Source of the DNA: Planctomycetota bacterium
GTDB lineage: Bacteria > Planctomycetota > UBA11346
Length of the DNA: 64,000 nucleotides
Direction: 5' to 3'
Assembly (NCBI GenBank): GCA_038213805.1
Contig: JBBQSO010000024.1
Span: forward strand, 1 to 64,000
A program made the translations under genes and the position numbers. Every line of letters starts with the position of its first letter. Position 1 is the stretch's first letter. Below the pieces are notes generated by a model. The model had not been told where the DNA came from, did no database searches, and was given only the letters and a program-made list of their open reading frames with translations. This document shows positions 5,412 to 50,197 of the stretch, piece by piece.

Positions 5412-6242
5412 TCAATCGGGCAGCTCGTCTTCGAAGAGCGCCGGCAGTTCGGTCAGCTCTGGCACCGCTTCGCCGCGCCGCTTGAGCTCGATGACGTCGA
5501 TGCAGGTCGCCAGCACCTGCTGGGCGGAGAAGCCCAGGCGGCGCACCGGGAAGCCGGTGGGGTTGCTCCACGGGAAATTACAGTGCACCACCGCGTCGAG
5601 TTCATCGGGCGCGATGCCGGCGCGGTGTACGCCCATCATGCCGTAATCGGCGAAGTTGTCGTCGGTGATCAGCAGCGCGTCGGGGCGCACGTCGGCGGGG
5701 GCGCGCAGCAGCTCGCGCGCGGCGTCCAGGGCCTCGCGTGGCTCGGTGAGCGCGCGCAGGCCACCGGGCACCAACTCCAGACGGCGGCGTGTGATCTCGG
5801 CGGGCAGGCGGGCGTTGCCGTAATGGTTGGCGGGCGTCAGCACGGCGACGCGGCGGCGGCCGCGTTTGGCGAGGTCCTCAAGCGCGCGGCGGCTCCATTC
5901 CTCGTCAGAGAGGTGGACCTCCAGGCAGGTCGGGTGGCCGGCGTGGCGCATCATGCCGACGCGCACCGGGCCGGGGCCGCGCACGATCGGCGTGTCGGCG
6001 ATCGGGAAGGGATTGGAAGCGAAGATGATGCCGCCCAGGCGGCGCTGGCGCAGGTCTTCCAGCAGGCGCTGGTGGTCGGGCTCGTCGGCTTGGCCGTTCA
6101 GCCCGAAATACGGGGTGATCGCCCGGCCGGGGAAGTGTGCTCCGGTGGTGGCCTCGAGCAGGAGCGAGGTCCAGAAGCGGTTCCACGACGGTTTGAACGG
6201 GTAGGCCGGGAAGACCAGGGCATAGGGGAGGGCGGGTGGCAT
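5412..6242 (-). CDS. LacI/GntR-type periplasmic-binding-fold effector domain protein, no visible HTH
   Basis: RRALEDLAKRGRRRVAVL, RPDALLITDD, GIAPDEL..VVHCN resemble the C-terminal domain of sugar-sensing regulators. Confidence 0.65.
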   Translation of the reverse strand: MPPALPYALVFPAYPFKPSWNRFWTSLLLEATTGAHFPGRAITPYFGLNGQADEPDHQRLLEDLRQRRLGGIIFASNPFPIADTPIVRGPGPVRVGMMRHAGHPTCLEVHLSDEEWSRRALEDLAKRGRRRVAVLTPANHYGNARLPAEITRRRLELVPGGLRALTEPREALDAARELLRAPADVRPDALLITDDNFADYGMMGVHRAGIAPDELDAVVHCNFPWSNPTGFPVRRLGFSAQQVLATCIDVIELKRRGEAVPELTELPALFEDELPD

Positions 6243-6295
6243 GAGCGGCACGGGATGTGTACCATCTGGACACCGCGTCCCGCAAGGTGCGGGCA

Positions 6296-7156
6296 TCAGC
6301 CTGGGACGAGCCAGTCTCCGGTGAACACGGTCACTGCGGGCCCGCTCATGACCACCTGGCGGTCGGGACCCGGCCAGGCGATGCGCAGGTCGCCGCCGTT
6401 CAGCCGCACCACCGCCTCGCGGCCAGGGATGACACCCTCCAGCACTGCGGCCACCAGCACGGCGCAGGCCCCCGTGCCGCAGGCCTGGGTCTCGCCCGAG
6501 CCGCGTTCCCAGGTGCGTTGACGCAGGACGGGCAGGCCGTGCTCATCGGGCAGGCGGGCGACGAATTCGACGTTGGTGCGGCGCGGGAAGCGCATGTGGT
6601 GCTCGACCTGGGGGCCGACGCTGGTTACCGGAAAGACGTCCGGATCTGGGACGAAGCAGACCGCATGGGGATTGCCCATGCCCACCGCCAGGAAATGCAG
6701 GTGCTCGCCGTCGAGGACGATGGTCAGGGCCAGGCGCGGGCCGGGCCCGGCGTGCTCGACCGGCACCTCGTCCGGAACCAGTCGTGGGCGACCCATGGCC
6801 ACGGTGGCGCCGGTGCAGCGCTCCCCATCCAGGTGCAGGTCGACATCGAGATGCCCGGCGCCGGTGGAAAAGGTCATGCGTGGGCGGCGCACGCGGTGGT
6901 GGTCCCAGGCGAGTTTGGCCGCGCAGCGGATGCCATTTCCGCACATTTCCGACTCGCTGCCGTCGGCATTGAGCATGCGCATGCGCGCGTCGACCACCGC
7001 ATCCGGCCCGATGATGATCAGGCCGTCGCCGCCGATGCCGTTGTGGCGATCGCTGACCGCCCGCGCCAGCCCCGGCAGGTCGGCTGGCAGAGCCTCGCCC
7101 CAGGCGTCGATGTAGATGTAGTCGTTGCCGCAGCCATGCATCTTCGTGAAGCGCAT
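6296..7156 (-). CDS. dapF: Diaminopimelate epimerase
   Basis: FTKMHGCGNDY, GIGGDG, NADGSESEMCGNGIRC, GNPH, ERGSGETQACGTGACA. Confidence 0.96.
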   Translation of the reverse strand: MRFTKMHGCGNDYIYIDAWGEALPADLPGLARAVSDRHNGIGGDGLIIIGPDAVVDARMRMLNADGSESEMCGNGIRCAAKLAWDHHRVRRPRMTFSTGAGHLDVDLHLDGERCTGATVAMGRPRLVPDEVPVEHAGPGPRLALTIVLDGEHLHFLAVGMGNPHAVCFVPDPDVFPVTSVGPQVEHHMRFPRRTNVEFVARLPDEHGLPVLRQRTWERGSGETQACGTGACAVLVAAVLEGVIPGREAVVRLNGGDLRIAWPGPDRQVVMSGPAVTVFTGDWLVPG

Positions 7157-7243
7157 GCGCGTAGCATCACGGCAACGGCGGCTGGGCAAAGGGGCTGGTG
7201 GTGGTGGTTGCGCGCCGGAGCGGCTGAGCGTTCGACGAATGCC

Positions 7244-7399
7244 TTAGTTGCGAGGGGGAACTGGTGCTTCAGGCAGGGTGATGGTGTGCCCCAGGCCGTC
7301 CTCAACCGAGCGGGTGCCGCGGAGGTAGGCGATGCCGACCAGCACGGCACCAATGACCAGGATCACCGCGATCGTGACCGTGGCGCGTTTGGGGATCAT
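7244..7399 (-). CDS. 51-aa single-TM small protein (MIPKRATVTIAVILVIGAVLVGIAYLRG...PPRN)
   Basis: Translated by hand; GGAGG RBS upstream of ATG; not in the ORF track. Confidence 0.65.
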   Translation of the reverse strand: MIPKRATVTIAVILVIGAVLVGIAYLRGTRSVEDGLGHTITLPEAPVPPRN

Positions 7400-7438
7400 G
7401 GCGACCTCCGCGACAGGGTGGCTGCTTCCATCTTCGGG

Positions 7439-7936
7439 TCATCCATCCTTGGCTGCCCGACCGCCGGCGCTGCGTCGCCGTCCGTCACGGTGGTCGGGAT
7501 CGAGGCGCTCCACCCGTTCCGGACGGACGGCGCCAGCAAGGTCATCGTCTTCCGCCCCGGGGGCGGTCGGCTCTGGCAATTCTTCACCAGCATCGCCGTC
7601 GAGGTCCTGCGGCAGGTCGTCCTCCTCGTTCTCGGTCGCCGTCAGGCCGTGGCGGTGGCGGTCGGCGATGCTGCCGGCGGCGTTGTTCGCGAGTTCCTTG
7701 GCGAGTCGGTCATCGCGGGCGCGATCGCTGACGTCGTCGGGGTGGCGCGTCTCCAAGCGCGATGGCGGCAGGCTGCGATCATCCTCCGCGCCGCCCCGAG
7801 AGGTCTCCGCGCTGGCCAGATGTGCGCGTGCCGTCTTCGTGGACACGGGTGAGGAAAGCGTCTTGGGCTTCACAGTCACCTTCTTGTTATGCGGAGGTTG
7901 AGCGGACTTTGCCGACTTGCCTGATGGTGTGGTCAT
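7439..7936 (-). CDS. Hydrophilic, likely disordered hypothetical protein (basic N-terminus, acidic C-terminal half)
   Basis: GGAG RBS; sigma-54-like promoter at 7968-7984. Confidence 0.6.
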   Translation of the reverse strand: MTTPSGKSAKSAQPPHNKKVTVKPKTLSSPVSTKTARAHLASAETSRGGAEDDRSLPPSRLETRHPDDVSDRARDDRLAKELANNAAGSIADRHRHGLTATENEEDDLPQDLDGDAGEELPEPTAPGAEDDDLAGAVRPERVERLDPDHRDGRRRSAGGRAAKDG

Positions 7937-7967
7937 GGCGGTTCTCCGTTCGGGTGTTAAGAGGAGA

Positions 7968-7984
7968 AGCTCTGGACATGCCAA
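7968..7984 (-). promoter_or_regulatory. sigma-54 -24/-12 element TTGGCATGTCCAGAGCT
   Basis: GG-N10-GC spacing, about 30 bp upstream of ATG 7936. Confidence 0.6.
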
Positions 7985-8333
7985 GGGATGCCGCCGCGAT
8001 CGTTCAGCATATACGCTGAAGGGAAGAACGCCGTAACAGCGGTTTAGGCTGCCATCCGTCAACAACCTAGAGCGGATCGGCGGAGCGGATCGGCGGCACG
8101 TGGGGCATCCGGAGTGCAAATCATCGTCACCGTCGGGCCCGGGCGGTGCGGATCGCAGCGTCGCACGCGGCCATCGCGGGTGGACCCGCATCGACCCCGT
8201 CATGCTGCAGGCGGATTTGGCGAGAGCGGTTGCACGCTGCACGATAGTGGTTCCCCCGCGACGGGTCCCGGGAGCCTATCGACCGCAAAAATGCGGTTGC
8301 GGCCGCACTTTTCGCCCAGCGGCAGTGAGCCAA

Positions 8334-8349
8334 TGGCACGCTTGCCGCT
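8334..8349 (+). promoter_or_regulatory. sigma-54 -24/-12 element TGGCACGCTTGCCGCT
   Basis: GG-N10-GC upstream of the BON gene. Confidence 0.6.
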
Positions 8350-8390
8350 CTCAGCGGTCTCCCGTCCCCAATAACCAAAGGAATAACACC

Positions 8391-9305
8391 ATGCGTCCTA
8401 CCCTTGCCTTCCTCGTGCCCGTCCTCGCCACCGGCCTCATCCTCGCGACCACGGGTTGCGATCAGCAGGCTGCGCGCAGCGACTACCCCGACAACTCCCC
8501 GCAGACGCACCGCCAGATCGACGAGATCCAGGCGGACGCGACGGCACGCAGGGCGGCCATCGACAAGCGCGCTGAGGAGAGGGCGACCGCGATCTCCTTC
8601 CACCGCGGTCAGATCTCGGACAAGGCCAAGGCCGATCGGGCCAAGATCGCGCTCGACCACGACCAGGCTGTCGCTCCGCTGAGCGCCAAGCGCGAAGCGA
8701 CCAAGGTCAAATACGATGCGCAGAAGCAGGAGATCGCCACTGCGCTCGCCAAGAAGCAGAAGGATAATACCGCCGAGGAGGCGCCCAAGCTGCTGGCGGA
8801 CGCCGCCGCCCAGACCGCCGAGGTTGACCGCAAGGAGACCGCGGAATTCGTCAGCATCGACCAGGACATCCGCTCCGCCGACGATACCGCCGCCAAGAAG
8901 AAGAACGACGTCGACGCCCAGGAGGCCAAGGACCTGGCAGATTGCGACCGTCAGCTGACCGAGACCAAGAACCAGGCGCGCGCGGACAAGCTCGCGGTCG
9001 ACAAGGACGTCAATGGCAAGGTCGCCAGTGTCGAAGGCGACAGCAAGTCGCGCATGGAGAAGACGCACGCCAGCGAGGACCGCACGCTCGAGAGCGATCG
9101 CAAGACCAGCGCCGCGGTGCGCGCGGACCTGGATGGCGACAAGGCCGTTGCGGCCAAATCCTCGGATGTGGCCATCACCACCAGGGACGGAGTGGTGACC
9201 CTGACCGGCACCGTGCCTTCCGATTATGACCGCCACGCCGTCATCGCCCGGGCCGGACAGACCAAAGGCGTGAAGAGCGTGGTGGATCAACTGTCCGTGC
9301 GTTGA
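8391..9305 (+). CDS. Lipoprotein with long coiled coil and C-terminal BON (OsmY-like) domain
   Basis: Lipobox TTG-C; C-terminal DGVVTLTGTV...AGQTKGVKSVVDQL; RBS AAGGA. Confidence 0.85.
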   Translation: MRPTLAFLVPVLATGLILATTGCDQQAARSDYPDNSPQTHRQIDEIQADATARRAAIDKRAEERATAISFHRGQISDKAKADRAKIALDHDQAVAPLSAKREATKVKYDAQKQEIATALAKKQKDNTAEEAPKLLADAAAQTAEVDRKETAEFVSIDQDIRSADDTAAKKKNDVDAQEAKDLADCDRQLTETKNQARADKLAVDKDVNGKVASVEGDSKSRMEKTHASEDRTLESDRKTSAAVRADLDGDKAVAAKSSDVAITTRDGVVTLTGTVPSDYDRHAVIARAGQTKGVKSVVDQLSVR

Positions 9306-40397: not shown

Positions 40398-41042
40398 ATG
40401 GGGACTTCTCCCGACATGCCGCCCGCGCCCGGACCATTCCCTCCTACCATGACCACCAGCACCAGCGAGCCGCCCGTCGACATGGCCACCCCACCGGGTG
40501 GCGATGCGGCGCGCCGTGACGAGGTGGTCAAGACCGCCTTCAAGTACCGCGATGCGCTGCTCGGCTATGCGTATTCGATGCTGCGCAGCTGGACCCTCGC
40601 CGAGGACGTGGTGCAGGAGTCCTTCCTGGTGGTGATGAACAAGTGGCAGGACCTCAAGGACGACGCCGGCATCTTCCTGTGGGTCCGCCAGATCGTGCAC
40701 TTCAAGACCCTTGAGGCGATCCGCGCGCGCGGCCGCGAGACCATGCTTCCCGACGAGGAGCTGCTCGGCCTGGTCGAGAAGGCGGTCAGCGAGAACCTCG
40801 ACGAGGCCATGGCCGAGCGGCAGCGCGTGCTCGGCGTGTCGCTGCGCGAGTGCATGTCGCGCCTCAACCGCTTCTCGGTCAGCCTGCTCGCCGGCTTCTA
40901 CTGGCGCCAGGAATCCTGCGAGGCCCTCGCCGAGGAGCACGGCCGCAGCATCAATGCGGTGCGCCTGATGCTGTCGCGCCTGCGCGAGAAGCTGCGCACC
41001 TGCCTGAGCAAGCGTCTCCAGCAGCAAGGGGTGCGCCCGTGA
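40398..41042 (+). CDS. ECF sigma-70 factor (Rhodopirellula/Verrucomicrobium type)
   Basis: AEDVVQESF, W(VRQ), LRECMSRL, SINAVRLMLSRLREKLRTC; start may be 40449 or 40482. Confidence 0.9.
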   Translation: MGTSPDMPPAPGPFPPTMTTSTSEPPVDMATPPGGDAARRDEVVKTAFKYRDALLGYAYSMLRSWTLAEDVVQESFLVVMNKWQDLKDDAGIFLWVRQIVHFKTLEAIRARGRETMLPDEELLGLVEKAVSENLDEAMAERQRVLGVSLRECMSRLNRFSVSLLAGFYWRQESCEALAEEHGRSINAVRLMLSRLREKLRTCLSKRLQQQGVRP

Positions 41043-42442
41043 GCGACCTGCGCCAGGATCAGCTGTACGAGAAGTACCTCGGCAACACTCTTGAGTCCGC
41101 GGACATCGTCCAGCTCAAGCAGGTGCTGTCCGGTTCACGCGCCGCGCGCACGCGCTTCGTCGAGGTGCTGCAGGAATGGCAGACCCTCGCCGAGGTCGCG
41201 CGCCAGGTGCACAGCGGCATGCCGTGGCAGGAACGCGGCAGCACCGCCGCCCAGGACCGCGATGCCGCGGGCGAGCTCGACAGCGCGCAGGACCACGGCG
41301 CCGCCGCCCATGACGGCGCGCTCGAAGAGGCCTTCCATCAGGTGCGCCGCAGCAGTGGCCGCCCATCACTGCGCCTGCAGCCGAGCCGCCGCCGCGGCGC
41401 CTTCGGGCGCTTCCTGATCGCCGCCGGGTCCCTCGCCGCCTGCGCCCTGCTCGCGTGGGGCTGGCTGCTGCCGCTCATGCAGGGCGCGCGCAGCGACGGC
41501 ATCGCCACGGTTGCGGTCGCCGACGCCGCGGCGCGCATCCAGCGCGGCGACCAGCGCCTCGACATCGCCAACGGCCAGGCCCTGCAGGGTGGCGACACGG
41601 TCTCGGTGCCACCGGGATCGTGGGCGCGCGTGCGCTACGCCGATGGCACCATGCTCGACATCGCGCCGGCCAGCGAGGTCACCCTCACCCAGCCCGACAA
41701 GCTCGGCAAGCGGGTGCACATCGCCAGCGGCAGTCTGACCGCCGACATCGCCAAGCAGCCCCCCGAGCGGCGCATGGTCTTCACCACGCCCACCGCGGCG
41801 GCCACGGTGCTGGGCACCAAGATCACCCTCGAGGTGACGCCGATGTCGACGCGTCTCGAAGTCGAGCGCGGGCGCGTCGGTCTGACGCGCCGCGACGAGC
41901 CGACCGGCATCGAGGTCGGCGCCGGCGAGTACGCCACCATCCCGTACGGCTCCAAGGGTGAGCTCGTCGCCAAATCGATCGTCAGCGCGCCCTCGGTGCT
42001 GGTCGAGCGCGGTCACGGCCTCAAGGGCGAGTATTTCGGCAACCTCGACCTGACGCCGCCGACGATGTTCACGCGCGTCGACTCCTCGCTCAGCTTCGAT
42101 CTCGGCTTCGATACACCCTGGCAGGACGACATGCGCCCGTCGCGCTTCTCGGTGCGCTGGACAGGCACCATCGAGCCGCGCTTCTCGGAGCGTTACTCGT
42201 TCTACACGCGCAGTGACAGCGGCCTGCGCCTGTTCATCGACGACCACGCTATCATCGACGATTGGGGCCACTGCGCGGTGTGCGAAAAGACCGGTGCCAT
42301 CGCCCTGCAGGCCGGCCACCGCTACGCCCTGCGCCTGGAGTACAACCAGCCGCGCTCGGGCATGCTCCTCAAGCTCAGCTGGACCAGCCCCAGCCAGGAG
42401 TGCGAGGTCATCCCCGCCGCCCGCCTGACCCCGGCGCCGTGA
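41039..42442 (+). CDS. FecR-domain anti-sigma factor with C-terminal PA14 domain
   Basis: TM; TPTAAATVLGT, EVERGRV; GLKGEYF, FSVRWTG, SDSGLRLFID; GTGA overlap. Confidence 0.88.
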   Translation: MSDLRQDQLYEKYLGNTLESADIVQLKQVLSGSRAARTRFVEVLQEWQTLAEVARQVHSGMPWQERGSTAAQDRDAAGELDSAQDHGAAAHDGALEEAFHQVRRSSGRPSLRLQPSRRRGAFGRFLIAAGSLAACALLAWGWLLPLMQGARSDGIATVAVADAAARIQRGDQRLDIANGQALQGGDTVSVPPGSWARVRYADGTMLDIAPASEVTLTQPDKLGKRVHIASGSLTADIAKQPPERRMVFTTPTAAATVLGTKITLEVTPMSTRLEVERGRVGLTRRDEPTGIEVGAGEYATIPYGSKGELVAKSIVSAPSVLVERGHGLKGEYFGNLDLTPPTMFTRVDSSLSFDLGFDTPWQDDMRPSRFSVRWTGTIEPRFSERYSFYTRSDSGLRLFIDDHAIIDDWGHCAVCEKTGAIALQAGHRYALRLEYNQPRSGMLLKLSWTSPSQECEVIPAARLTPAP

Positions 42443-42542
42443 GGCCGGGAGTGCCCCGGTGTGCCACGCGCGGGGCGCGGGCGCCCGGGCGGCTCCGCGG
42501 GTCCTTCTTGAGGTGGGTGCGGTCGGCCCTAGAAACGCGGCC

Positions 42543-43214
42543 ATGACCACCGCCCTGCTGCGCGCATCCACTATCGGGACGATCGTCGCCGGACTGCTCA
42601 TGTCCGCCAGCGTTCCGGCGCTCGCCGCAGAAGACGTCATCGGCGAGTCTGGCGGCCTGACCCTCAACGACGTGCGCCTCGGCTTCGGCCTGCTGCCGAT
42701 CTCGTCCAACACCGAGACCCAGACCAACGGCGTCACCACCTTCCGCAAGCGCGGCCAGTTCGACCTCACCGGGCGCACCTCGGTGCAGTGGATGCTGCCG
42801 CTCAGCGAACTCGACAACGATGGCGGTTGGATCTGGGGCCTCGAACTCTCGCGCAACCGCTACATCCAGGAAGCGTCCGTCAGCCAGCCGACCCTGGACG
42901 TGGTCAGTTACGCGATCACCGCGCACTTCGGCCTCGGCTGGGTGCTGGCGCCGCACTTCCATCTCGAGGTCAACCCGCTGTTCGGCCTGGGCGTGACGCA
43001 GATGAACTCGGGCACCGGCTTGGGCCGCTACAGCGAGTACGGCGGCCGCTTCGGGATCTATTGGACCTCGGAATCGCGCTGGCAGCTGGGCGTCGCCTAC
43101 GCCTACCTGTGGACGCGTGCCGAGCAGTCGCAGACCACCGGCGGCGTCAACCAGGACACCCTGGTGAGGACCGATGGCGCGACGGTGTCCGTGCAGCTGG
43201 GCTACCGCTTCTGA
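42543..43214 (+). CDS. Outer-membrane beta-barrel protein, paralog of 16725-17405
   Basis: Signal peptide; DVRLGFG; ends LGYRF. Confidence 0.78.
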   Translation: MTTALLRASTIGTIVAGLLMSASVPALAAEDVIGESGGLTLNDVRLGFGLLPISSNTETQTNGVTTFRKRGQFDLTGRTSVQWMLPLSELDNDGGWIWGLELSRNRYIQEASVSQPTLDVVSYAITAHFGLGWVLAPHFHLEVNPLFGLGVTQMNSGTGLGRYSEYGGRFGIYWTSESRWQLGVAYAYLWTRAEQSQTTGGVNQDTLVRTDGATVSVQLGYRF

Positions 43215-43403
43215 ACCACCGCTGCGCGAAAGCGGTTGGGCTACGGCAAAGGTGCAGGTCGCGGATGGCGAGCGGCGACATGTGGGCCTCTCGACCCCTC
43301 GGCCGGTGTTTCTGAATTTTGGGCGGCGATGCAGCCGTTGCTGGATGCGCTGCTGACGCAGGCTGGGGCCGAGGCGTGCCGCGCTGGTTGTTCGTAGCCC
43401 GAC

Positions 43404-43450
43404 GGAAAACGAACGGCCCCGGGCGACAGCGTCGTCCGGGGCCGTTTTCC
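43404..43450. terminator. Probable bidirectional terminator between convergent barrel and rho genes
   Basis: AACGGCCCCGG/CCGGGGCCGTT stem flanked by A and T runs. Confidence 0.7.
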
Positions 43451-43466
43451 ACTCACTAGCGGCGGT

Positions 43467-45893
43467 TTACCAGCTCGACAGCCGGTCCGGGTCGACGGTC
43501 AGCAGGAACTCGATGTTGGTCTTCGAGTTCTTGAGCTTCGACTTGAGGAAGTCGATGGCGTCGGCGCCGTTGCGGTCGGCGAGGAACTTGCGCAGCGCCC
43601 ACACGCGGCGCAGCTCGTCGTCGTTCTTGATCAGCAGCTCGTCCTTGCGCGTGCCGGACTGGGCGCAGTCGACCGCGGGGAAGACGCGGCGGTTGGCCAG
43701 GCGGCGGTCCAGGACCAGCTCCATGTTGCCGGTGCCCTTGAACTCCTCGAAGATCACCGTGTCCATCAGCGAGCCGGTGTCGACGATCGCGGTGGCGAGG
43801 ATGGTCAGCGAGCCGCCATTCTCGATCTTGCGCGCCGCGCCGAAGAACTGCTTGGGTTTGATCAGCGCGTTCGAGTCGATGCCGCCCGAGAGGATGCGCC
43901 CGGAGTTGGGCGCCTCGCTGTTGTAGGCGCGCGCCAGGCGGGTGATCGAGTCGAGCAGGATGACCACGTCGCGGCCGCGCTCGACCAGGCGCTTGGCCTT
44001 ATTGATCACCATCTCGGCGCACTGCACGTGGCGCGAGGCGGGCTGGTCGAAGGTCGACGCGACGACCTCGCCACGCACGCTGCGCTGCATGTCGGTGACC
44101 TCCTCCGGGCGCTCGTCGACGAGCAGCACCATCAGCTCGACCTCGGGATTGTTGGTGGTGATCGCCTTTGCGATCTTGGTCATGTACACGGTCTTGCCGC
44201 ACTTGGGCTGGGCGACGATCAGGCCGCGCTGGCCTTTGCCGATCGGCGCCACCAGGTCGATGATGCGCAGCGAATAGTCCGTCGGGTCGTTGGCCAGCTC
44301 CATGAACAGGCGCTCGTGCGCATGCAGCGGCGTGAGGTGCTCGAAGTCCTGCACCGCGGTGCGCTTGTTCTCAGGCTCGCCCATCACGGTGTAGATGTTC
44401 AGCAGCTGCGGGCAGCGCTCGTTGCCGCGCGGCGCGCGCGCCGAGCCGGTGACGTGCATGCCGGCCTTGAGGCCGTAGCGGCGGATCTGCGGGTTGGCGA
44501 TGAAGGTGTCGGTGTTCACCGGCAGGTAGTTGTTGAGCGGCGACCGGATGTAGGCCTGCTCGCCCTTGAGCAGTTCGATGTGTCCCTCGACCAGGATCTC
44601 GTCGGCGCGGCCGGCGGCGACGCGGCGCAGGATCTCGCAGATCAGGTCGTGCTTCTTCAGCCACTTGACGTCGCGGACGTCGTACTTGTCGGCCTCGCCC
44701 TGGAGATCGGGCAGGGTGCGGCGCAGGTAGTCGTCGAGGTCGAGCTTGACCGGCGCGCGGTCGTTCGGGTTGGGCTGGCCACCCTGGCCACCCTGATTGC
44801 CTTGGCCGCCTTGGCCGCCTTGGCCGGGGCGCGGGCCCTGGCCCTGGCCCTGGGCGAAGTTGCCGCGCGGCTCGAAGCCCTGGCGCGGCTGGTCGAAGCC
44901 CTGGCGGCCATCGTTGCGGGGCTCCTGTCGCGGTTCGGGGCGCGCTTCGGCGCGCGGCGGCGCCGGCTCGTCGCCCTGGTCGCCGGCGCCGTCGTCGTCC
45001 GCGGCGTCCTCGACTACCGGCTTGGCCTGGCGGCGCAGCGCGGCGAGATCGACGCCGAGCTGGCGCGCGAGGATGGTCTTGGCGTAGGCGGCGAGCAGTG
45101 CCGGGTCGCCGGAGTTGTCGACCGCGAGCTGGCACGACTTGCGGCGCGCGTCGGCGTTGCCAAGCGCGGTCTCGCGGCGTGCGAGCTCGGCTTCGTCCCA
45201 GCCGCGCTCGGCGAGGCGGACCAGGCGCGCCTCGCGGTTGGCGCGCACGTAGATGGCGGTGGTGCACAGCTCGCCCAGGCCCAGCTCGTGGAGCAGGGCG
45301 GCGTCGATGACCACGAAGTTGCCGAGCTTCTTGACCAGGGCTTTGACCTTGGCGGTGAGCTTGGTGTGGACGATGGCGTTGAGCGCGGCGGTGGCCTCGG
45401 CGCTGGCGAAGGCCTTGGCGGCGAGCTTGCGCCGATCGATGCCGCCGTCCTCGCCGAGGATGTCCTCGCCGAACTCCTTGACGAGCGCCTTCTTGACCAT
45501 CGGGGTCTCGATCAGCTCGTGGCCGACCTCGTCGACCACCACCAGTTGGCCACCGAGTCCGGCGATCTGGCGCGCCAGGGCGCTCTTGCCGGCGCCGGGC
45601 TCGCCGGTGATGCCGATGACCACGGTCTTGCCGGCGGGTACGGTCAGGGTCGGTTCGCCCGCGGGGGCGTCGCCGTTGCCATTGCCATTGCCATTGCCGC
45701 CGGGTGCGGCGCTCTGCGCGTCGTTGCCGTCGGCGGGGGCTTCGCCGCGATCGTAGTCATCGCTGCCCTGCGGACCGTCCGCCGCGTCGCCGTTGCCGGC
45801 GGGAGCCGGGCCGTCGCCGCGGCCGTTGCGCCGGCGGCGATGCCGGTTGTTGCGGCTGAAGGGACGGTTGTCTGAGGGGCGCTGGTCGTTCAT
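43467..45893 (-). CDS. rho: Transcription termination factor Rho with N-terminal dephospho-CoA kinase (CoaE)-like domain
   Basis: Rho: QRGLIVAQPKCGKT, DERPEEV, DSITRLARAYN, FKGTGN. CoaE at about aa 91-277: IGITGEPGAGKS, FGEDIL..IDRRKL, VH, DAALLHE, DNSG. Confidence 0.95.
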   Translation of the reverse strand: MNDQRPSDNRPFSRNNRHRRRRNGRGDGPAPAGNGDAADGPQGSDDYDRGEAPADGNDAQSAAPGGNGNGNGNGDAPAGEPTLTVPAGKTVVIGITGEPGAGKSALARQIAGLGGQLVVVDEVGHELIETPMVKKALVKEFGEDILGEDGGIDRRKLAAKAFASAEATAALNAIVHTKLTAKVKALVKKLGNFVVIDAALLHELGLGELCTTAIYVRANREARLVRLAERGWDEAELARRETALGNADARRKSCQLAVDNSGDPALLAAYAKTILARQLGVDLAALRRQAKPVVEDAADDDGAGDQGDEPAPPRAEARPEPRQEPRNDGRQGFDQPRQGFEPRGNFAQGQGQGPRPGQGGQGGQGNQGGQGGQPNPNDRAPVKLDLDDYLRRTLPDLQGEADKYDVRDVKWLKKHDLICEILRRVAAGRADEILVEGHIELLKGEQAYIRSPLNNYLPVNTDTFIANPQIRRYGLKAGMHVTGSARAPRGNERCPQLLNIYTVMGEPENKRTAVQDFEHLTPLHAHERLFMELANDPTDYSLRIIDLVAPIGKGQRGLIVAQPKCGKTVYMTKIAKAITTNNPEVELMVLLVDERPEEVTDMQRSVRGEVVASTFDQPASRHVQCAEMVINKAKRLVERGRDVVILLDSITRLARAYNSEAPNSGRILSGGIDSNALIKPKQFFGAARKIENGGSLTILATAIVDTGSLMDTVIFEEFKGTGNMELVLDRRLANRRVFPAVDCAQSGTRKDELLIKNDDELRRVWALRKFLADRNGADAIDFLKSKLKNSKTNIEFLLTVDPDRLSSW

Positions 45894-45978
45894 GGGGACT
45901 CGGGAGAGGTGGGGACGGGGCTGGTGGTGATCAGGCGCGGGGCGCGGTCACGGTTTTGGAAAAATTGGAGGCGCGCAT

Positions 45979-46020
45979 CGGAGTGCGGAGTGCGGAGTGC
46001 GAGACATGAGACATGAGACC
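45979..46020. repeat. Heptamer tandem repeats (GGAGTGC)3(GAGACAT)2
   Basis: Read directly between polA and rho. Confidence 0.8.
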
Positions 46021-46070
46021 ACGGATTTCCATCGCGAGGTGTGCACGGCGAGGGCTGCGCTGCACCTGCA

Positions 46071-48719
46071 TCAACTCACCTCCAGCCAGGTCGCGCCGCG
46101 GCGCACCTCGGCGACCAGGGGGACTTTGAGTGTCCAGGCGCCGCTCATCGCGGTCTGGAGGGCCTTGGCGGCCTGGTCGGCGACGCTGACGTGGGCTTCG
46201 ACGAGCAATTCGTCGTGGATCTGCAGCACCAGCTGGGAACCGACCGGCAGGGCCTGCTCGCAGCGCAGCATGGCGCGCTTGATGAGGTCGGCGGCGCTGC
46301 CCTGGATGGTGCTGTTGAGCGCGATGCGCTCGCCCTGCAGGCGCTCGTTGCGGTTGGCGTTGGCGAGTTGCGGGATGTAGCGGCGGCGTCCGGCCATGGT
46401 CTGCGCGTAGCCGCGTTCGGCGGCTTCGGCGATGACCTTGGCGATGTAGGCGCGCACCTCGGCGAAGCGCGCGAAGTAGTTGTCGATGAAGCGCTGCGCG
46501 TCGCCGCGCGGGATGCCGAGCTGCTGCGACAGGCCGAAGGCGGTCTGCCCGTAGATGATGCCGAAGTTGACCGCCTTGGCGGCGTTGCGCTGCGCGGGCG
46601 TGACCGCGGCCTCGTCGACGCCGCCGACCTGGGCGGCGACGAAGCGGTGGATGTCGGCCTGGCCCATGAAGGCCGCGCGCAGGGTGGGGTCGCCGGAGAG
46701 GTGGGCGAGCACGCGCAGCTCGATCTGGCTGTAGTCCGCGGCAAGCAGCACGTGGTCCTGCGGGGCGATGAAGGCGGCGCGGATCTCGCGCCCGGCGTCG
46801 CTCTTCTTGGGGATGTTCTGCAGGTTCGGCGAGTCGCTGCTGATGCGCCCGGTCTCGGTGCCGTTCTGCTTGAGGTTGGTGTGGATGCGACCGGTGCGCG
46901 GGTGGATGTACTCAGGCAGCTTCGTCAGGTAGGTGCCGATCAGCTTGGACAGCGTGCGGTGCTGCAGCAGCAGACCGGGCAGTTCGTGCTGGTGACGCAG
47001 CGCTTCGAGCACGGACGCGTCGGTCGACGGCCCGCTCTTGGTCATGGCGATGACCGGCAGCTTGAGCTTGGTGAAGAGCAGCTCGCCGATCTGCTTCGGG
47101 CTGGCGGGGTTGAACGTCGGCCCGGCCACGGCGCGGATGCTGGCGGTGACCTGCTCGAGGTACTGCTCGAGGTGGCGCTGGGTGGCGGCGAGGGTCGCGC
47201 GGTCGACGCGCAGGCCGGCGTCCTCCATGCGCGCCAGGCAGGCGGCGATCGGCACCTCTTGGGTGCGGTAGACCTCGAGCAGATGGCCCTCGGCGAGCCT
47301 GGCCTCGAGCAGCTGGCCGAGGCGCCAGGTGCACTGCGCGTCCTCGCAGGCGTACTGCGCGACGGTGGCGACCGGCACCTGGTCCATGGTCTGCCCGGCG
47401 GCGAGGTCGATGACCGCGCTGGTCGGAATCTTGTCCTCGCCCAGGAACAGCTTGGTCAGGTGGTCCAGCCCGTGGCTCTCGCGCGAGGGGTCGAGCAGCC
47501 AGCTCGCGAGCAGGGTGTCGCCGTCGATGCCGGCCATGACCAGGCCGTGCGCGGCGAGCACGCGGCGGTCGTACTTGGTGTTCTGCCCGAATTTCGCCAC
47601 GCCGGGATCGGCGAGCAGCGGCGCGAGCGCGGCCTGCGCGTCGGCCCACGGCACCAGCGCGTGGTCGAGACCGCGCAGCGGCAGGTACACCGCGCCGTGC
47701 CCGTCCGCGGCGCCCCAGGCGAAGCTGATGCCGACCAGCTGCGCGCTGAGCGGATCCAGGCCGGTGGTCTCGGTGTCGATCGCGAAGCGCCCGGCCGCGC
47801 GCAGGTCGGCGACCAGTCCGGGCAGGTCGCTCGCGGCAAGGATGCGGTAGGCGCCGCTGGCGCTCGCGGCCTTGGCCGGCACCGGGAAGAACTTGGCCTT
47901 GCTGAAGCCGAAGCCGGAATATACCGCCTCGTCGCAGGTGTAAGCGGGATCCAGGCGCAGCTGCGCGAGCGGCGGCAGGTCCGGCACCTCGGACAGCGTG
48001 ATCAGCCGGCGCGTCAGGTCGGCGACGGATTTGAAGGCTTCGACGTTCTCGCGCTGCTTGCCCTTGAGCTTGTCGCTGTTGGCCAGCACCTGCTCAAGGC
48101 TACCGTACTCGGCGAGCAGCTTGGTCGCGGTCTTGGGGCCGACGCCGGTGATGCCCGGAACGTTGTCCGAACTGTCGCCGATCATGCACAGGTAGTCGAC
48201 GACCTGCGCGGGTGTGATGCCCTTTTCCGCGAGCAGTTCGGCCGGCCCGCGCAGCAGGCCCTTGCCCGGATCCCACGTGCGGATGCGCGCGCTCAGCACC
48301 TGGTCGACGTCCTTGTCCTTGGTCAGCATGCGCACGTCCATGCCGGCCGCCTCGCCCTGCTTGGCGAGCGTGACCAGCACATCGTCGGCCTCGAAGCGTG
48401 CGACGCAGATCAGCGGGATCCCGCTCGCCGTGCAGATGGTCACCAGATCGGCCATCTGCGTGCGCAGGTTATCCGGCATGGGGTCGCGCTGCGCCTTGTA
48501 GTCCGGGAAGATCTCGTGGCGGAAACTGTCCTCGTCGTGGTCGAAGACGCAGGCGAGGTGGGTGATGTCGCCGTTCGCGCGCAGGTCCTTGAAGAGATTG
48601 GCGAACGCGTAGGTCACGCCCGTGGGCCGGCCGCCGGGGCCGGTCAGAGGTGGCATGCCGAAGAAGAATTTATAAGCGTAATAGTGGCCATCGATGATGG
48701 CCAGAGTCTCAGCCGGCAT
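46071..48719 (-). CDS. polA: DNA polymerase I
   Basis: IDGH, YKAQR, EADD, GDSSDNVPG; DTETT 3'-5' exonuclease; TGRISS..PNLQNIP, DYSQIELR, KAVNFGIIYG, QIHDEL. Confidence 0.97.
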   Translation of the reverse strand: MPAETLAIIDGHYYAYKFFFGMPPLTGPGGRPTGVTYAFANLFKDLRANGDITHLACVFDHDEDSFRHEIFPDYKAQRDPMPDNLRTQMADLVTICTASGIPLICVARFEADDVLVTLAKQGEAAGMDVRMLTKDKDVDQVLSARIRTWDPGKGLLRGPAELLAEKGITPAQVVDYLCMIGDSSDNVPGITGVGPKTATKLLAEYGSLEQVLANSDKLKGKQRENVEAFKSVADLTRRLITLSEVPDLPPLAQLRLDPAYTCDEAVYSGFGFSKAKFFPVPAKAASASGAYRILAASDLPGLVADLRAAGRFAIDTETTGLDPLSAQLVGISFAWGAADGHGAVYLPLRGLDHALVPWADAQAALAPLLADPGVAKFGQNTKYDRRVLAAHGLVMAGIDGDTLLASWLLDPSRESHGLDHLTKLFLGEDKIPTSAVIDLAAGQTMDQVPVATVAQYACEDAQCTWRLGQLLEARLAEGHLLEVYRTQEVPIAACLARMEDAGLRVDRATLAATQRHLEQYLEQVTASIRAVAGPTFNPASPKQIGELLFTKLKLPVIAMTKSGPSTDASVLEALRHQHELPGLLLQHRTLSKLIGTYLTKLPEYIHPRTGRIHTNLKQNGTETGRISSDSPNLQNIPKKSDAGREIRAAFIAPQDHVLLAADYSQIELRVLAHLSGDPTLRAAFMGQADIHRFVAAQVGGVDEAAVTPAQRNAAKAVNFGIIYGQTAFGLSQQLGIPRGDAQRFIDNYFARFAEVRAYIAKVIAEAAERGYAQTMAGRRRYIPQLANANRNERLQGERIALNSTIQGSAADLIKRAMLRCEQALPVGSQLVLQIHDELLVEAHVSVADQAAKALQTAMSGAWTLKVPLVAEVRRGATWLEVS

Positions 48720-49133
48720 GCAGCCCCGGGGAGTGGGTGCGGATCCTGCGTTCAGACGCAGGGTGATCGCACTGGAAACAGCGGTTTTTTGGAGGAAACG
48801 TCTCGCGGGGTGCGGGCGACAGCAGGCCGACCCGGACCGGAGAACAGAGCGCACACATACGCGCGCTCTGGCGTGACCATAGGCCGCGCGCGGGAAGCTG
48901 TCAACCTCGAAAGCCCCCGTTCGCCTCCTGGCCGCGTCGAGATTCCCATGCCAAGATGCACTGCCGGCAAGGATTTGCGCGGCTCTATCTGGCACCATCG
49001 CCCTTGCGGAACCTGCGGCGGGCACGCCTGCGGACGTGCCCGCCGCCCTGGCACCTGGCCGCTCGCACCGCGTGGCTCGGCCTCGACACCTCCCACCCTT
49101 GCCGAGCCCACCCCCCGCGCCAGCCTGCCGCCC

Positions 49134-49634
49134 ATGGAACTCCCCCCGTCCGTCCTGGTTGCTGGTCGACCCGTCGCCATCCGCCTGCTGTCCGGTGGCG
49201 AGCTGCTGTGCGGTCGGGTGATGCTCGTCACCGGCGGCTGGCTGCAGCTCTCCGGCAGCGAAGGTCCGCTGCTGGTGCGCCTCGACCAGATCGCCGTGCT
49301 GCACCTCGATGGCGCGGCGCTGGCCGCGGACGAGCCGGTCGATGATCCCGCGGTGCTGTTGAGGCCCCGCTCGGCCGAGCCGCCGCGCAAGGCCGGATCG
49401 AAGGCGCCGGGGCGCGCCTGGCACGAGGAGGACCTGCGCGCCCTCGCCGACGCCTTTCTCGACAACGCTAACGACGCCGAGCTCGCCGAGCGCTTCCACC
49501 GTGCGCGCGGTCAGGTCAAGGAGCTGCGCCAGGGTTTCGAGTGCGCGCGCGGCAATCTCGTCGAGGACCAGATCAGCCCGGTCGCCCAGACCTGGGTGGG
49601 GCGATGGCGGAAGGTGCTGGGCGGGGTGCGGTGA
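49134..49634 (+). CDS. Hypothetical protein (Sm-like N-terminus, helix-turn-helix-like C-terminus)
   Basis: Good codon bias; domain guess from sequence pattern only. Confidence 0.6.
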   Translation: MELPPSVLVAGRPVAIRLLSGGELLCGRVMLVTGGWLQLSGSEGPLLVRLDQIAVLHLDGAALAADEPVDDPAVLLRPRSAEPPRKAGSKAPGRAWHEEDLRALADAFLDNANDAELAERFHRARGQVKELRQGFECARGNLVEDQISPVAQTWVGRWRKVLGGVR

Positions 49635-49666
49635 TCCGGATCCTTCCCGTCGAGAGGGAGACCGTC

Positions 49667-49978
49667 ATGAGGGTGTGCATCTGGGTGGTCGCCAGTGCCG
49701 TGGTCCTGGCGCTCGCGGTGCTGGCACTCATCCACCATGGCAGGAGCGCGGTCCTCGCGTTCGACGGGCCAGGTCGTGGTCCGCAGCAGGAGGACAGGAC
49801 GTGCCGATGCGACGGCTTCGCCTGGAGGCGCGCGGATCTCCAGGAGACGTCCTACTGCGTGTTCTTCTTCACCGTCGCAGCGAGCCGTGGTCACGGGTCT
49901 TTTGCGAGCAGGACGTCCTACGCGTGGTCACCGTTCTCCGGGACCGTCTGGATCGCATCCAGCATGTCCGCCCATTGA
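49667..49978 (+). CDS. Hypothetical exported/membrane protein
   Basis: RBS GGGAG; N-terminal hydrophobic segment. Confidence 0.4.
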   Translation: MRVCIWVVASAVVLALAVLALIHHGRSAVLAFDGPGRGPQQEDRTCRCDGFAWRRADLQETSYCVFFFTVAASRGHGSFASRTSYAWSPFSGTVWIASSMSAH

Positions 49979-50197
49979 CGTCGGCTCCCGGCTTGGCGAT
50001 TTCGTGCGAACGGTGACCATCGGCGGCACGGGGACCAGGCCAAGCGCCTCCCAGGCGGCCTGTCTTCCGTTCTGCCCCATTGCGGTGGGGCGGCTCGCCG
50101 CCCACCTCGGGCCGACCAGGCGGCGGGGGGCACTCAGCGGTACGTGGTTGGTCCATGAACCGGTTGCCGCTCCGCCCCCCGCGCCGAACATGACGGC

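Follow-up and report, generated by a model that had tools for sequence, protein, structure and literature searches.

A dephospho-CoA kinase domain fused to the N-terminus of transcription termination factor Rho in an uncultured class of Planctomycetota

Rho is a central and usually essential regulator of bacterial transcription, and the N-terminal additions known for it are disordered insertions that bind RNA. The locus described here, in a 64,000-nucleotide stretch of a Planctomycetota genome (hereafter called the window), raises the question whether a rho gene that is continuous in frame with a dephospho-CoA kinase (CoaE)-like domain encodes one protein with two working activities. The original prediction, made from the sequence alone, described a single frame of 808 amino acids comprising a disordered N-terminus, a CoaE-like kinase, a linker and a complete Rho, and this was confirmed with the ORF list and with Pfam and NCBIfam models. 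A CoaE domain that scores with its family models is indeed joined to a complete Rho, and this architecture is conserved throughout one uncultured class of Planctomycetota. The protein is probably genuinely bifunctional, an active dephospho-CoA kinase and a complete Rho with independent activities, which arose by fusion of neighbouring genes and was kept across the class.

The frame begins with an ATG and is unbroken in the ORF list and its translation, and the predicted protein consists of four parts: an Arg-rich tail, the CoaE domain, a linker rich in Gly, Gln and Pro, and a complete Rho (Table 1). The CoaE motifs quoted in the original prediction are present in the ORF. As had also been claimed, there is no separate coaE between polA and rho, only a spacer on the same strand, and the polA gene upstream of it encodes all the PolI domains. 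No Rfam family matched within positions 42000-50000, and a simple scan of the polA-fusion spacer region gave no sigma-70-like promoter. Four terminator-like sites were found, near the 2.3 expected from shuffling. No RNA run was listed as containing this stretch.

Table 1 Features of the coaE::rho locus, with positions in the window
Feature	Position	Strand	Evidence
coaE::rho fusion ORF, 808 aa + stop	43467..45893	-	single open frame; CoaE and Rho models both above cut-offs
N-terminal tail, aa 1-88, low complexity, Arg-rich cluster	45630..45893	-	composition
Dephospho-CoA kinase (CoaE) domain, aa 89-288	45030..45629	-	HMMs, PDB sequence matches, residue conservation, AF2, Foldseek
Linker, aa 289-385, disordered-looking	44739..45029	-	composition, variable length, low conservation
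Complete Rho, aa 386-808	43470..44738	-	TIGR00767 collinear, motifs, invariant columns
polA-fusion spacer, 177 nt, without separate coaE	45894..46070	-	ORF list
polA, DNA polymerase I, 882 aa, conserved upstream neighbour	46071..48719	-	5 PolI Pfam domains

CoaE and Rho matches on one contig and in one shared open frame were found in 39 of the 48 genomes of the GTDB class, which represent 18 genera. A search with the CoaE domain gave 71 long proteins, of which 63 carry both the CoaE and the Rho Pfam domains; these have 58-86 % identity and come from Planctomycetota MAGs where the source is named. The total length of the fusion proteins is 696-834 amino acids in the relatives matching the P-loop pattern (55 of 62). 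When 1.84 billion representatives were searched with the CoaE domain, one full-length representative of the family was found, plus fragments, and the next relatives were stand-alone CoaE proteins of ~200 amino acids with at most 45 % identity.

The Rho part matches the rho equivalog model TIGR00767 over residues 389-800 (564.9 bits, cut-off 509.45), collinearly from position 6 to 413 of the 415 in the model. It contains the N-terminal helix bundle (Rho_N, residues ~393-426), the RNA-binding OB domain (PF07497, residues 435-507, 57 bits) and the ATPase domain (PF00006, residues 542-746, 93.8 bits), with the Walker A motif PKCGKT at residue 563 and the Walker B motif DERPEEV at 593. Approximately 100 columns are invariant across 22 Rho sequences, and the stem leading to the Rho core of this class is long, 0.52 changes per site, in a small Rho tree. 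The Rho part would be a hexameric RNA-dependent ATPase acting as a terminator. The helix bundle, OB domain, Walker motifs and C-terminal motifs of canonical bacterial Rho (E. coli type) are all present, whereas the 385 extra N-terminal residues, including a folded enzyme, set the fusion protein apart. Rho of Mycobacterium tuberculosis also has extra, probably disordered Arg/Gly/Asp/Asn/Gln-rich sequence in its N-terminal part, an insertion (NID) reported to govern the selection of RNA (Rut) sites (PMC13650167, PMC8828861). As described there, however, the NID is not an enzyme and separates the helix bundle from the RNA-binding domain, whereas the addition in the fusion protein precedes the bundle and holds a complete kinase fold. 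The fusion protein has no such insertion after its helix bundle, where Rho_N (393-426) directly abuts the OB domain (435-507). In two predictions of a complex between the Rho part and the CoaE domain, run without controls, the score was 0.00 both times, which speaks neither for nor against contact between them.

The idea in the original prediction that neighbouring genes had fused was borne out by the gene order in the phylum. At each of 13 other Planctomycetota loci examined, the gene immediately upstream of rho, and on its strand, is coaE. In five of these loci, which belong to three further GTDB families, the two are fused. Neighbours thus seem to have fused repeatedly in the phylum, and the architecture in the window probably arose in the same way, by the joining of neighbouring genes. 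In the 13 other loci polA comes before coaE wherever the flank is long enough. Among 13 f1 loci polA is upstream in 11, and the remaining two start at the CoaE match; it is also upstream in five other Planctomycetota loci. Fused forms occupy three separated places in the small Rho tree. The other-family fusions (L008-L011 and L016; proteins P0222-P0232) share the domain order of the window protein, and each is the sole CoaE match of its genome, but they have the canonical CoaE motifs (GGIGSGKS, DAD, HP, PLL) and short Lys/Glu-rich linkers. Since unfused Rho sequences separate them from the class of the window in the tree, they are probably independent of it.

In the favoured mechanism, loss of the stop codon and spacer between the co-oriented neighbours coaE and rho, within the polA-coaE-rho order usual in the phylum, would have joined an active dephospho-CoA kinase, catalysing the last step of CoA synthesis, to the N-terminus of Rho through a disordered linker of ~100 residues. 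Since these genomes encode no other CoaE and no other Rho, the fusion protein would have to supply both activities. Around its N-terminal crown a Rho hexamer would then display six kinase domains on flexible tethers, most likely as two independent activities on one chain, and the fusion would fix their co-expression. The basic tail and the linker, which contains Gly, Gln and Arg, may increase the affinity for RNA, as do the disordered N-terminal insertions of other Rho proteins. The first 30 residues of the tail are 30 % Arg with a net charge of +6, and at least five Arg or Lys residues occur within a 12-residue window of the tail in 53 of the 55 relatives matching the P-loop pattern, although the mean conservation of the tail is low (0.48). 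The linker (G 21 %, Q 15 %, P 14 %, D 10 %) has a conservation of 0.44 and varies in length among the relatives; lengths taken by regular expression were dropped because the Rho start was misplaced in many sequences.

Dephospho-CoA can cap bacterial RNA, and a functional link between the two parts can be envisaged, although it is unlikely: the ligand state of an active kinase (dephospho-CoA, CoA, acyl-CoA, ATP or CTP), or its binding of dephospho-CoA-capped 5' RNA ends, might modulate the site or the strength of Rho loading. Such a link would be consistent with the adjacency of coaE and rho in 13 of 13 other loci and with the separate appearances of fused forms in the tree, and regulation of mycobacterial CoaE by CTP has been reported (PMC2765170). 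The C-terminal helix of the CoaE domain (residues 263-288) is also strongly conserved, 0.78 compared with 0.74 for the whole domain, and this very strong conservation, like the Arg-rich tail, is unexplained by a model of purely independent enzymes. Against such coupling, co-oriented adjacent genes readily become fused even when their functions are unrelated, CoaE joins with diverse partners (TsaC/Sua5-CoaE and CoaE-PF03703 proteins are abundant), and the unconserved length and composition of the linker argue against a fixed geometry between the domains. The fuller proposal, that six CoaE domains on the Rho ring, each between an Arg-rich tail and a Gly/Gln-rich linker, bind dephospho-CoA, CoA or dephospho-CoA-capped RNA and thereby tune or target Rho loading, and that adjacency and recurrent fusion were selected for this coupling, appears somewhat less probable still.

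The original prediction had left two options, the CoA kinase of the cell or a degenerate sensor; the former is favoured by the sole CoaE, the intact catalytic residues and the presence of the CoA pathway. The domain scores 92 bits with PF01121 (cut-off 27, residues 92-262) and 82.5 bits with TIGR00152 (cut-off 65.55), whereas the mycobacterial-type model NF002879 gave 107.5 bits, below its cut-off of 215, because that model also spans a C-terminal domain absent from the fusion protein. The domain has a P-loop, GEPGAGKS (K103), of the pattern GxxxxGK[ST], the catalytic D121, L200 and the lid residues R223 and R226. All 61 aligned relatives keep G97, K103 and S104; as mapped through the alignment with 6n39, D121 is kept in 61 of 61, L200 in 58 of 62 and R226 in 62 of 62. 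Mutagenesis of mycobacterial CoaE has been reported to define Gly8 and the ATP-binding Lys14, the catalytic Asp32, Leu114 in the substrate cleft and Arg140 in the lid (PMC3019153); the equivalents of the M. tuberculosis residues Gly8, Lys14, Asp32 and Arg140 are kept in every relative with a residue at the position (61/61 or 62/62) and that of Leu114 in 58 of 62. The P-loop Lys, the catalytic Asp and both lid Arg residues are invariant over 46 fused and stand-alone CoaE domains. The AF2 model of the domain, which has the three-part fold of P-loop kinases, has a pLDDT of 93.6 and a pTM of 0.88, and among the Foldseek matches listed for it ranks 1-28 are all dephospho-CoA kinases (TM 0.64-0.83). 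Solved CoaE structures matched by sequence with E values from 3e-25 (6n39, the best) to 5e-13. With its critical residues kept and a modelled fold that agrees with solved CoaE structures, the domain is most likely the active kinase of the cell rather than a degenerate sensor.

Compared with stand-alone CoaE (PF01121; 6n39, 2grj, 2if2, 1jjv, 1vhl), the fused domain has the same P-loop, catalytic Asp, Leu and lid Arg residues and a TM score of up to 0.83, but it is not a separate gene and the conservation of its C-terminal helix is unusual. Its subtype, 'PGAGKS / GH / AALL', is nearer to Thermotoga maritima CoaE (2grj) and to some stand-alone proteins (41-45 % identity) than to the canonical form in other Planctomycetota (31-38 % identity). 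Of the deviations from CoaE motifs listed in the original prediction, two, VVD (for DxD) and HT (for HP), are peculiar to the genus of the window. T. maritima 2grj likewise lacks the first Asp of DxD, reading NVD where the window protein reads VVD, and the AALL variant also occurs there. In 43 of 62 full-length relatives DxD begins with D and in six with V; HP is kept in 58 and replaced by HT in two. The fused CoaE domains of the class score 92-126 bits with PF01121, compared with 135-192 bits for stand-alone CoaE of the phylum (among the best 150 matches listed); these lower scores and the minority substitutions of the genus make a reduced or altered activity possible. They also lend some colour to a reading in which the domain is non-catalytic, a nucleotide/CoA-binding or RNA-recruiting module of Rho, and another, unrecognised enzyme completes CoA. 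This is very improbable, given that all the residues defined as critical by mutagenesis are kept and that VVD-like and AALL variants occur in a solved CoaE.

The gene content likewise speaks against a non-catalytic module. In the genome of the window the only above-cut-off matches to PF01121 and TIGR00767 are two fused genes, one in the window and one on contig C38, so that no other coaE was found; the archaeal dephospho-CoA kinase (PF04019) was absent from that genome in a profile search, whereas coaX, coaB, coaC and coaD are present. In 41 other genomes of the class there was never more than one CoaE match per genome, always fused where both matches lie on one contig, and only the window's genome (G000) has more than one CoaE or Rho. 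All the genomes are MAGs, 61-96 % complete, so that absence of a second coaE is not provable for any single one. The fused copy on C38 was set aside as a true paralogue, and the contig is probably mis-binned, because its tetranucleotide composition is an outlier, ranking 87 among the 90 contigs that reach 20 kb. The contig also shares its gene order with C55 and C24, at 33-82 % protein identity, its Rho groups with other genera in the small Rho tree, and two copies occur in no other genome of the class.

That the cell does not contain one protein at all, through an assembly or annotation artefact or through a Rho made separately, additionally or exclusively, from an internal start or by proteolysis of the linker, is just as improbable as a non-catalytic module: low-complexity linker DNA is handled badly by assemblers and polymerases, but the same fused frame occurs in 39 independently assembled genomes and 63 database clusters, an independent public contig of 1800 nt that spans positions 44507-46100 has 0 differences and 0 gaps there, and the linker indels of related strains (3 nt at 44819 and 24 nt at 44809) are multiples of three and keep the frame. 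The fused frame is not an assembly artefact, since it recurs in the class and its indels preserve it. ATG, GTG and TTG are absent from 40 codons before to five codons after the Rho_N start in the window, and the conserved Val before Rho_N is GTC, GTG or replaced by Ile across relatives, with no conserved internal start; proteolysis of the linker may still occur.

A limited literature search found no description of this fusion in print, in agreement, within those limits, with the claim of the original prediction. In public databases the protein mostly goes under the name 'transcription termination factor Rho'; a single JGI record calls it 'transcription termination factor Rho/dephospho-CoA kinase'. 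Other CoaE fusions include M. tuberculosis CoaE-UPF0157 (PMC2765170), mammalian PPAT-DPCK (2f6r), TsaC/Sua5-CoaE and CoaE-PF03703, and in the accounts of those that have been studied CoaE remains an enzyme. None of these partners is a transcription factor or RNA helicase, whereas here the partner is an unrelated hexameric motor of an essential type.

An obligatory, class-wide fusion of Rho with a metabolic enzyme that has arisen more than once in the phylum is a Rho architecture for which no printed description was found. Plain fusion of neighbours would by itself fix a 1:1 ratio and six kinase domains per termination motor, and the protein lends itself to testing whether Rho can accept grafted modules that sense metabolism. 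Should termination be affected when the kinase domain binds ligands or caps, this would be a new regulatory principle, linking acyl-carrier metabolism, or non-canonical RNA capping, directly to genome-wide termination. The annotation is also corrected, as genomes appear to be without coaE where records name the protein only 'Rho'. Among 12 long frames around CoaE matches in other families, seven (L012-L015 and L017-L019) were rejected as spurious high-GC frames before an ordinary stand-alone coaE; the length of an open frame alone therefore over-calls such fusions.

The ORF at 43467..45893 on the reverse strand of the window is, according to the ORF listing and the translation, a single open reading frame of 808 codons with an ATG start, in which a dephospho-CoA kinase (CoaE) is joined to a complete Rho. 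PF01121 (dephospho-CoA kinase) matches residues 92-262 with 92 bits (Pfam cut-off 27), and the NCBIfam CoaE model TIGR00152 matches residues 92-265 with 82.5 bits (cut-off 65.55). The Rho RNA-binding domain (residues 435-507) and the RecA-type ATPase domain (residues 542-746) were identified with Pfam, and the Rho equivalog TIGR00767 covers residues 389-800 with 564.9 bits (cut-off 509.45), corresponding to model positions 6-413 of 415. These matches place each half clearly within its own family. A complete polA gene, encoding a DNA polymerase I of 882 amino acids, lies upstream on the same strand and ends 177 nt away, and no separate coaE is present in this 177-nt gap. The original prediction, which had placed a CoaE-like domain and a complete Rho in one frame at this location without a coaE between polA and rho, was correct on each of these points.

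Features of the fusion protein, of the genes convergent with it and of the second fused copy
Feature	Location	Strand	Remarks
Tail	residues 1-88		low complexity; residues 1-30 are 30 % arginine, net charge +6
Arg-rich N-terminal cluster, ahead of the kinase domain	residues 1-30; window 45804-45893		
Kinase domain	residues 89-288		
CoaE C-terminal helix	residues 263-288; window 45030-45107		
Linker	residues 289-385		Gly 21 %, Gln 15 %, Pro 14 %, Asp 10 %
Rho	residues 386-808		helix bundle contiguous with OB domain
ECF-type sigma factor (Sigma70_r2) overlapping start of FecR-plus-PA14 protein	window 40398-42442	+	
251-aa ORF	window 42459-43214	+	signal-peptide-like start; no Pfam match
Second fused copy	contig C38 of the same genome (locus L007), 6141-8510	-	789 aa, same domains
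polA beside second fused copy	contig C38, 8519-11215	-	precedes fusion gene

The fused frame is not an artefact. No stop codon or frameshift separates the domains, as had been read from the window: a public contig of 1800 nt spans 44507-46100 with 0 differences and 0 gaps, and contigs of related strains have linker deletions of 3 and 24 nt which keep the frame. No conserved internal start codon was found ahead of the Rho part, and in the window the stretch from codon -40 to codon +5 relative to the beginning of the Rho helix bundle lacks ATG, GTG and TTG. Close relatives are also fused. A protein search that compared the CoaE domain with long proteins only gave 71 proteins passing E 0.001, 63 of which (database clusters P0002-P0064) have CoaE as well as Rho Pfam domains; their identity in the kinase domain is 58-86 %, and every named one is from a Planctomycetota MAG. 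The uncultured GTDB class of the window organism is an identical set to its order and family, with 48 genomes in 18 genera, and comparison of the two match tables showed that 39 of the 48 have CoaE and Rho on one contig and in one open frame. The remaining nine genomes (62-85 % complete) had CoaE only or the halves on different short contigs (three), Rho only (two) or neither (four).

CoaE was found in 385 of 401 sampled genomes of the phylum, most listed matches being in frames of 200-300 amino acids. The 12 longest frames from the best 150 listed CoaE matches were fetched, and five proved to be genuine CoaE-Rho fusions, belonging to three other GTDB families (L008/L009, L010/L011 and L016); the other seven were rejected as fusions, being ordinary coaE genes behind spurious long frames. 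In all 12 loci, and in the additional locus L033, rho immediately follows coaE on the same strand, with polA upstream of coaE where the flank reaches, which supports the earlier idea that neighbouring genes had fused. In the fusions of the other families the CoaE motifs are canonical and the linkers are short and rich in Lys/Glu; these fusions correspond to 11 database clusters, one named by JGI 'transcription termination factor Rho/dephospho-CoA kinase'. In a quick maximum-likelihood Rho tree of 23 sequences, the window's class formed a single clade with a support of 100 and a long stem, and the other fused forms fell into two further groups with unfused Rho in between; small and unrooted, the tree suggests that fusion arose independently two or three times, or was sometimes reversed, among genes kept adjacent. 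In two loci with separate genes (L018 and L019), coaE and rho share a reading frame with only stop codon(s) and spacer between them, a state one single change away from fusion. Two other kinds of CoaE fusion were abundant among P0065-P0072 and P0233-P0340: TsaC/Sua5 (PF01300 and PF03481) joined to CoaE, about 530-545 aa long, and CoaE joined to PF03703 (bPH_2), about 380-450 aa long; the second kind is named from Phycisphaerae MAGs.

The window's own genome (5.5 Mb, 90 % complete) has PF01121 in two places only, both fused to Rho, and TIGR00767 above cut-off in the same two places only, so the one other coaE is itself part of a fusion, on contig C38. This second protein is 66.6 % identical to the window protein. 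Its interpretation as a paralogue was set aside: in tetranucleotide usage C38 is an outlier, ranking 87 among 90 contigs, it runs collinear with C55 and C24, whose proteins share 33-82 % identity with its own, its Rho clusters in the tree with other class members and not with the window's Rho, and no other genome of the 48-genome class was found to have two copies. On the simplest reading, C38 probably came from a related organism and was mis-binned; whichever reading holds, its copy adds one more independent case of the fusion. Every other class genome has at most one CoaE match and one Rho match.

The archaeal-type kinase PF04019 was not found in the window's genome. The other CoA steps are represented by coaX, coaD, coaB and coaC, the last two as separate genes; CoaC (C26:2613-3131) and CoaB (C2:54745-55269), usually fused as CoaBC (Dfp), are split across contigs. 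Because the genome has no other CoaE or Rho match, the fusion is the only visible source of both functions, which argues for an active enzyme. The original prediction had offered a CoA kinase or a degenerate sensor as alternatives; the sole copy favours the former, and the sensor is not favoured.

Among solved structures, dephospho-CoA kinases gave the best sequence matches (6n39, E 3e-25; T. maritima 2grj, 1.5e-22). Mutagenesis of the M. tuberculosis enzyme, as excerpted from PMC3019153, identified Lys14, Asp32, Arg140 and Leu114 as critical, Gly8 also being tested. Through the 6n39 alignment these correspond to K103, D121, R226, L200 and G97, which are conserved in 61/61, 61/61, 62/62, 58/62 and 61/61 relatives, respectively, and none of 46 CoaE domains, fused and stand-alone, varies at the Lys, the Asp or either lid arginine. 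Of the departures from CoaE motifs noted originally, AALL and the missing first Asp are within the range of a solved CoaE, both occurring in 2grj (which reads NVD), and others are confined to the genus. The first DxD position is D in 43 of 62 relatives, and HP is present in 58 of 62. An AlphaFold2 model of residues 85-290 had a mean pLDDT of 93.6, and with this model as query all Foldseek matches in the PDB at listed ranks 1-28 were dephospho-CoA kinases (TM 0.64-0.83). The class has a kinase domain of a 'PGAGKS / GH / AALL' CoaE subtype (CoaE-domain alignment A1, proteins P0081-P0110), which 2grj and some stand-alone CoaE also have. Despite its place in the same polA-coaE-rho order, this domain is not of the canonical 'GGIGSGKS / DAD / PLL' type seen in other Planctomycetota. 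It is 41-45 % identical to some stand-alone CoaE, one from a Planctomycetota MAG, and less close (31-38 %) to the canonical CoaE of other Planctomycetota.

Mean conservation per alignment column among 62 full-length relatives was 0.48 in the tail, 0.74 in CoaE, 0.44 in the linker and 0.78-0.89 in the Rho domains. The CoaE C-terminal helix (consensus near LLAAYAKTILARQLG), variable in stand-alone CoaE, reached 0.78 within the class, compared with 0.74 for the whole kinase domain. The helix may be an interaction surface. An R/K cluster (>=5 R/K in 12 residues) is present in the tail of 53 of the 55 relatives matching the P-loop pattern, the other 7 of the 62, without such a match, being left out of the count. 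The Arg-rich cluster resembles an arginine-rich RNA-binding motif.

With two apparently intact halves, each the sole copy, the best-supported reading is a bifunctional protein with two activities side by side. In established Rho structures the N-terminal domains form the crown of the hexameric ring, and an N-terminal addition on a flexible linker of ~100 residues would place six kinase domains around that crown. The ligand state of the kinase may in addition influence termination by the attached Rho: simple co-expression does not account for a C-terminal helix so strongly conserved, for the retention of the tail or for fusion having recurred, but many unrelated fusion partners of CoaE are known from database matches and the linker is not conserved among the 62 relatives. 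Excerpts of PMC13650167 describe N-terminal insertion domains (NIDs) in about a third of Rho-bearing species, an M. tuberculosis NID which governs Rut-site selection, and disordered N-terminal additions of other Rho factors which aid RNA recruitment. By analogy, the Arg-rich tail and the linker could have a similar RNA-recruiting role. The fusion protein is not a Rho of the NID type, since its extra sequence comes before the helix bundle and includes an enzyme, and with helix bundle and OB domain contiguous there is no NID-type insertion inside the Rho part.

Full-text literature searches, with domain-architecture databases outside their scope, found no published description of a CoaE-Rho fusion, in agreement with the original prediction, and the claim is therefore 'not found in print' as far as these searches reached rather than 'unknown'. 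Public databases already contain these proteins, under the name Rho alone in nearly all cases. In Chlamydia, STRING is reported to link rho with coaE and polA (excerpt of PMC8762339), which would fit these genes being neighbours there. Only a demonstrated coupling of CoA metabolism to termination would make the finding highly interesting.

The sigma factor and FecR-plus-PA14 genes, likely a sigma/anti-sigma pair, are convergent with the fusion gene, as is the 251-aa ORF just downstream of it.
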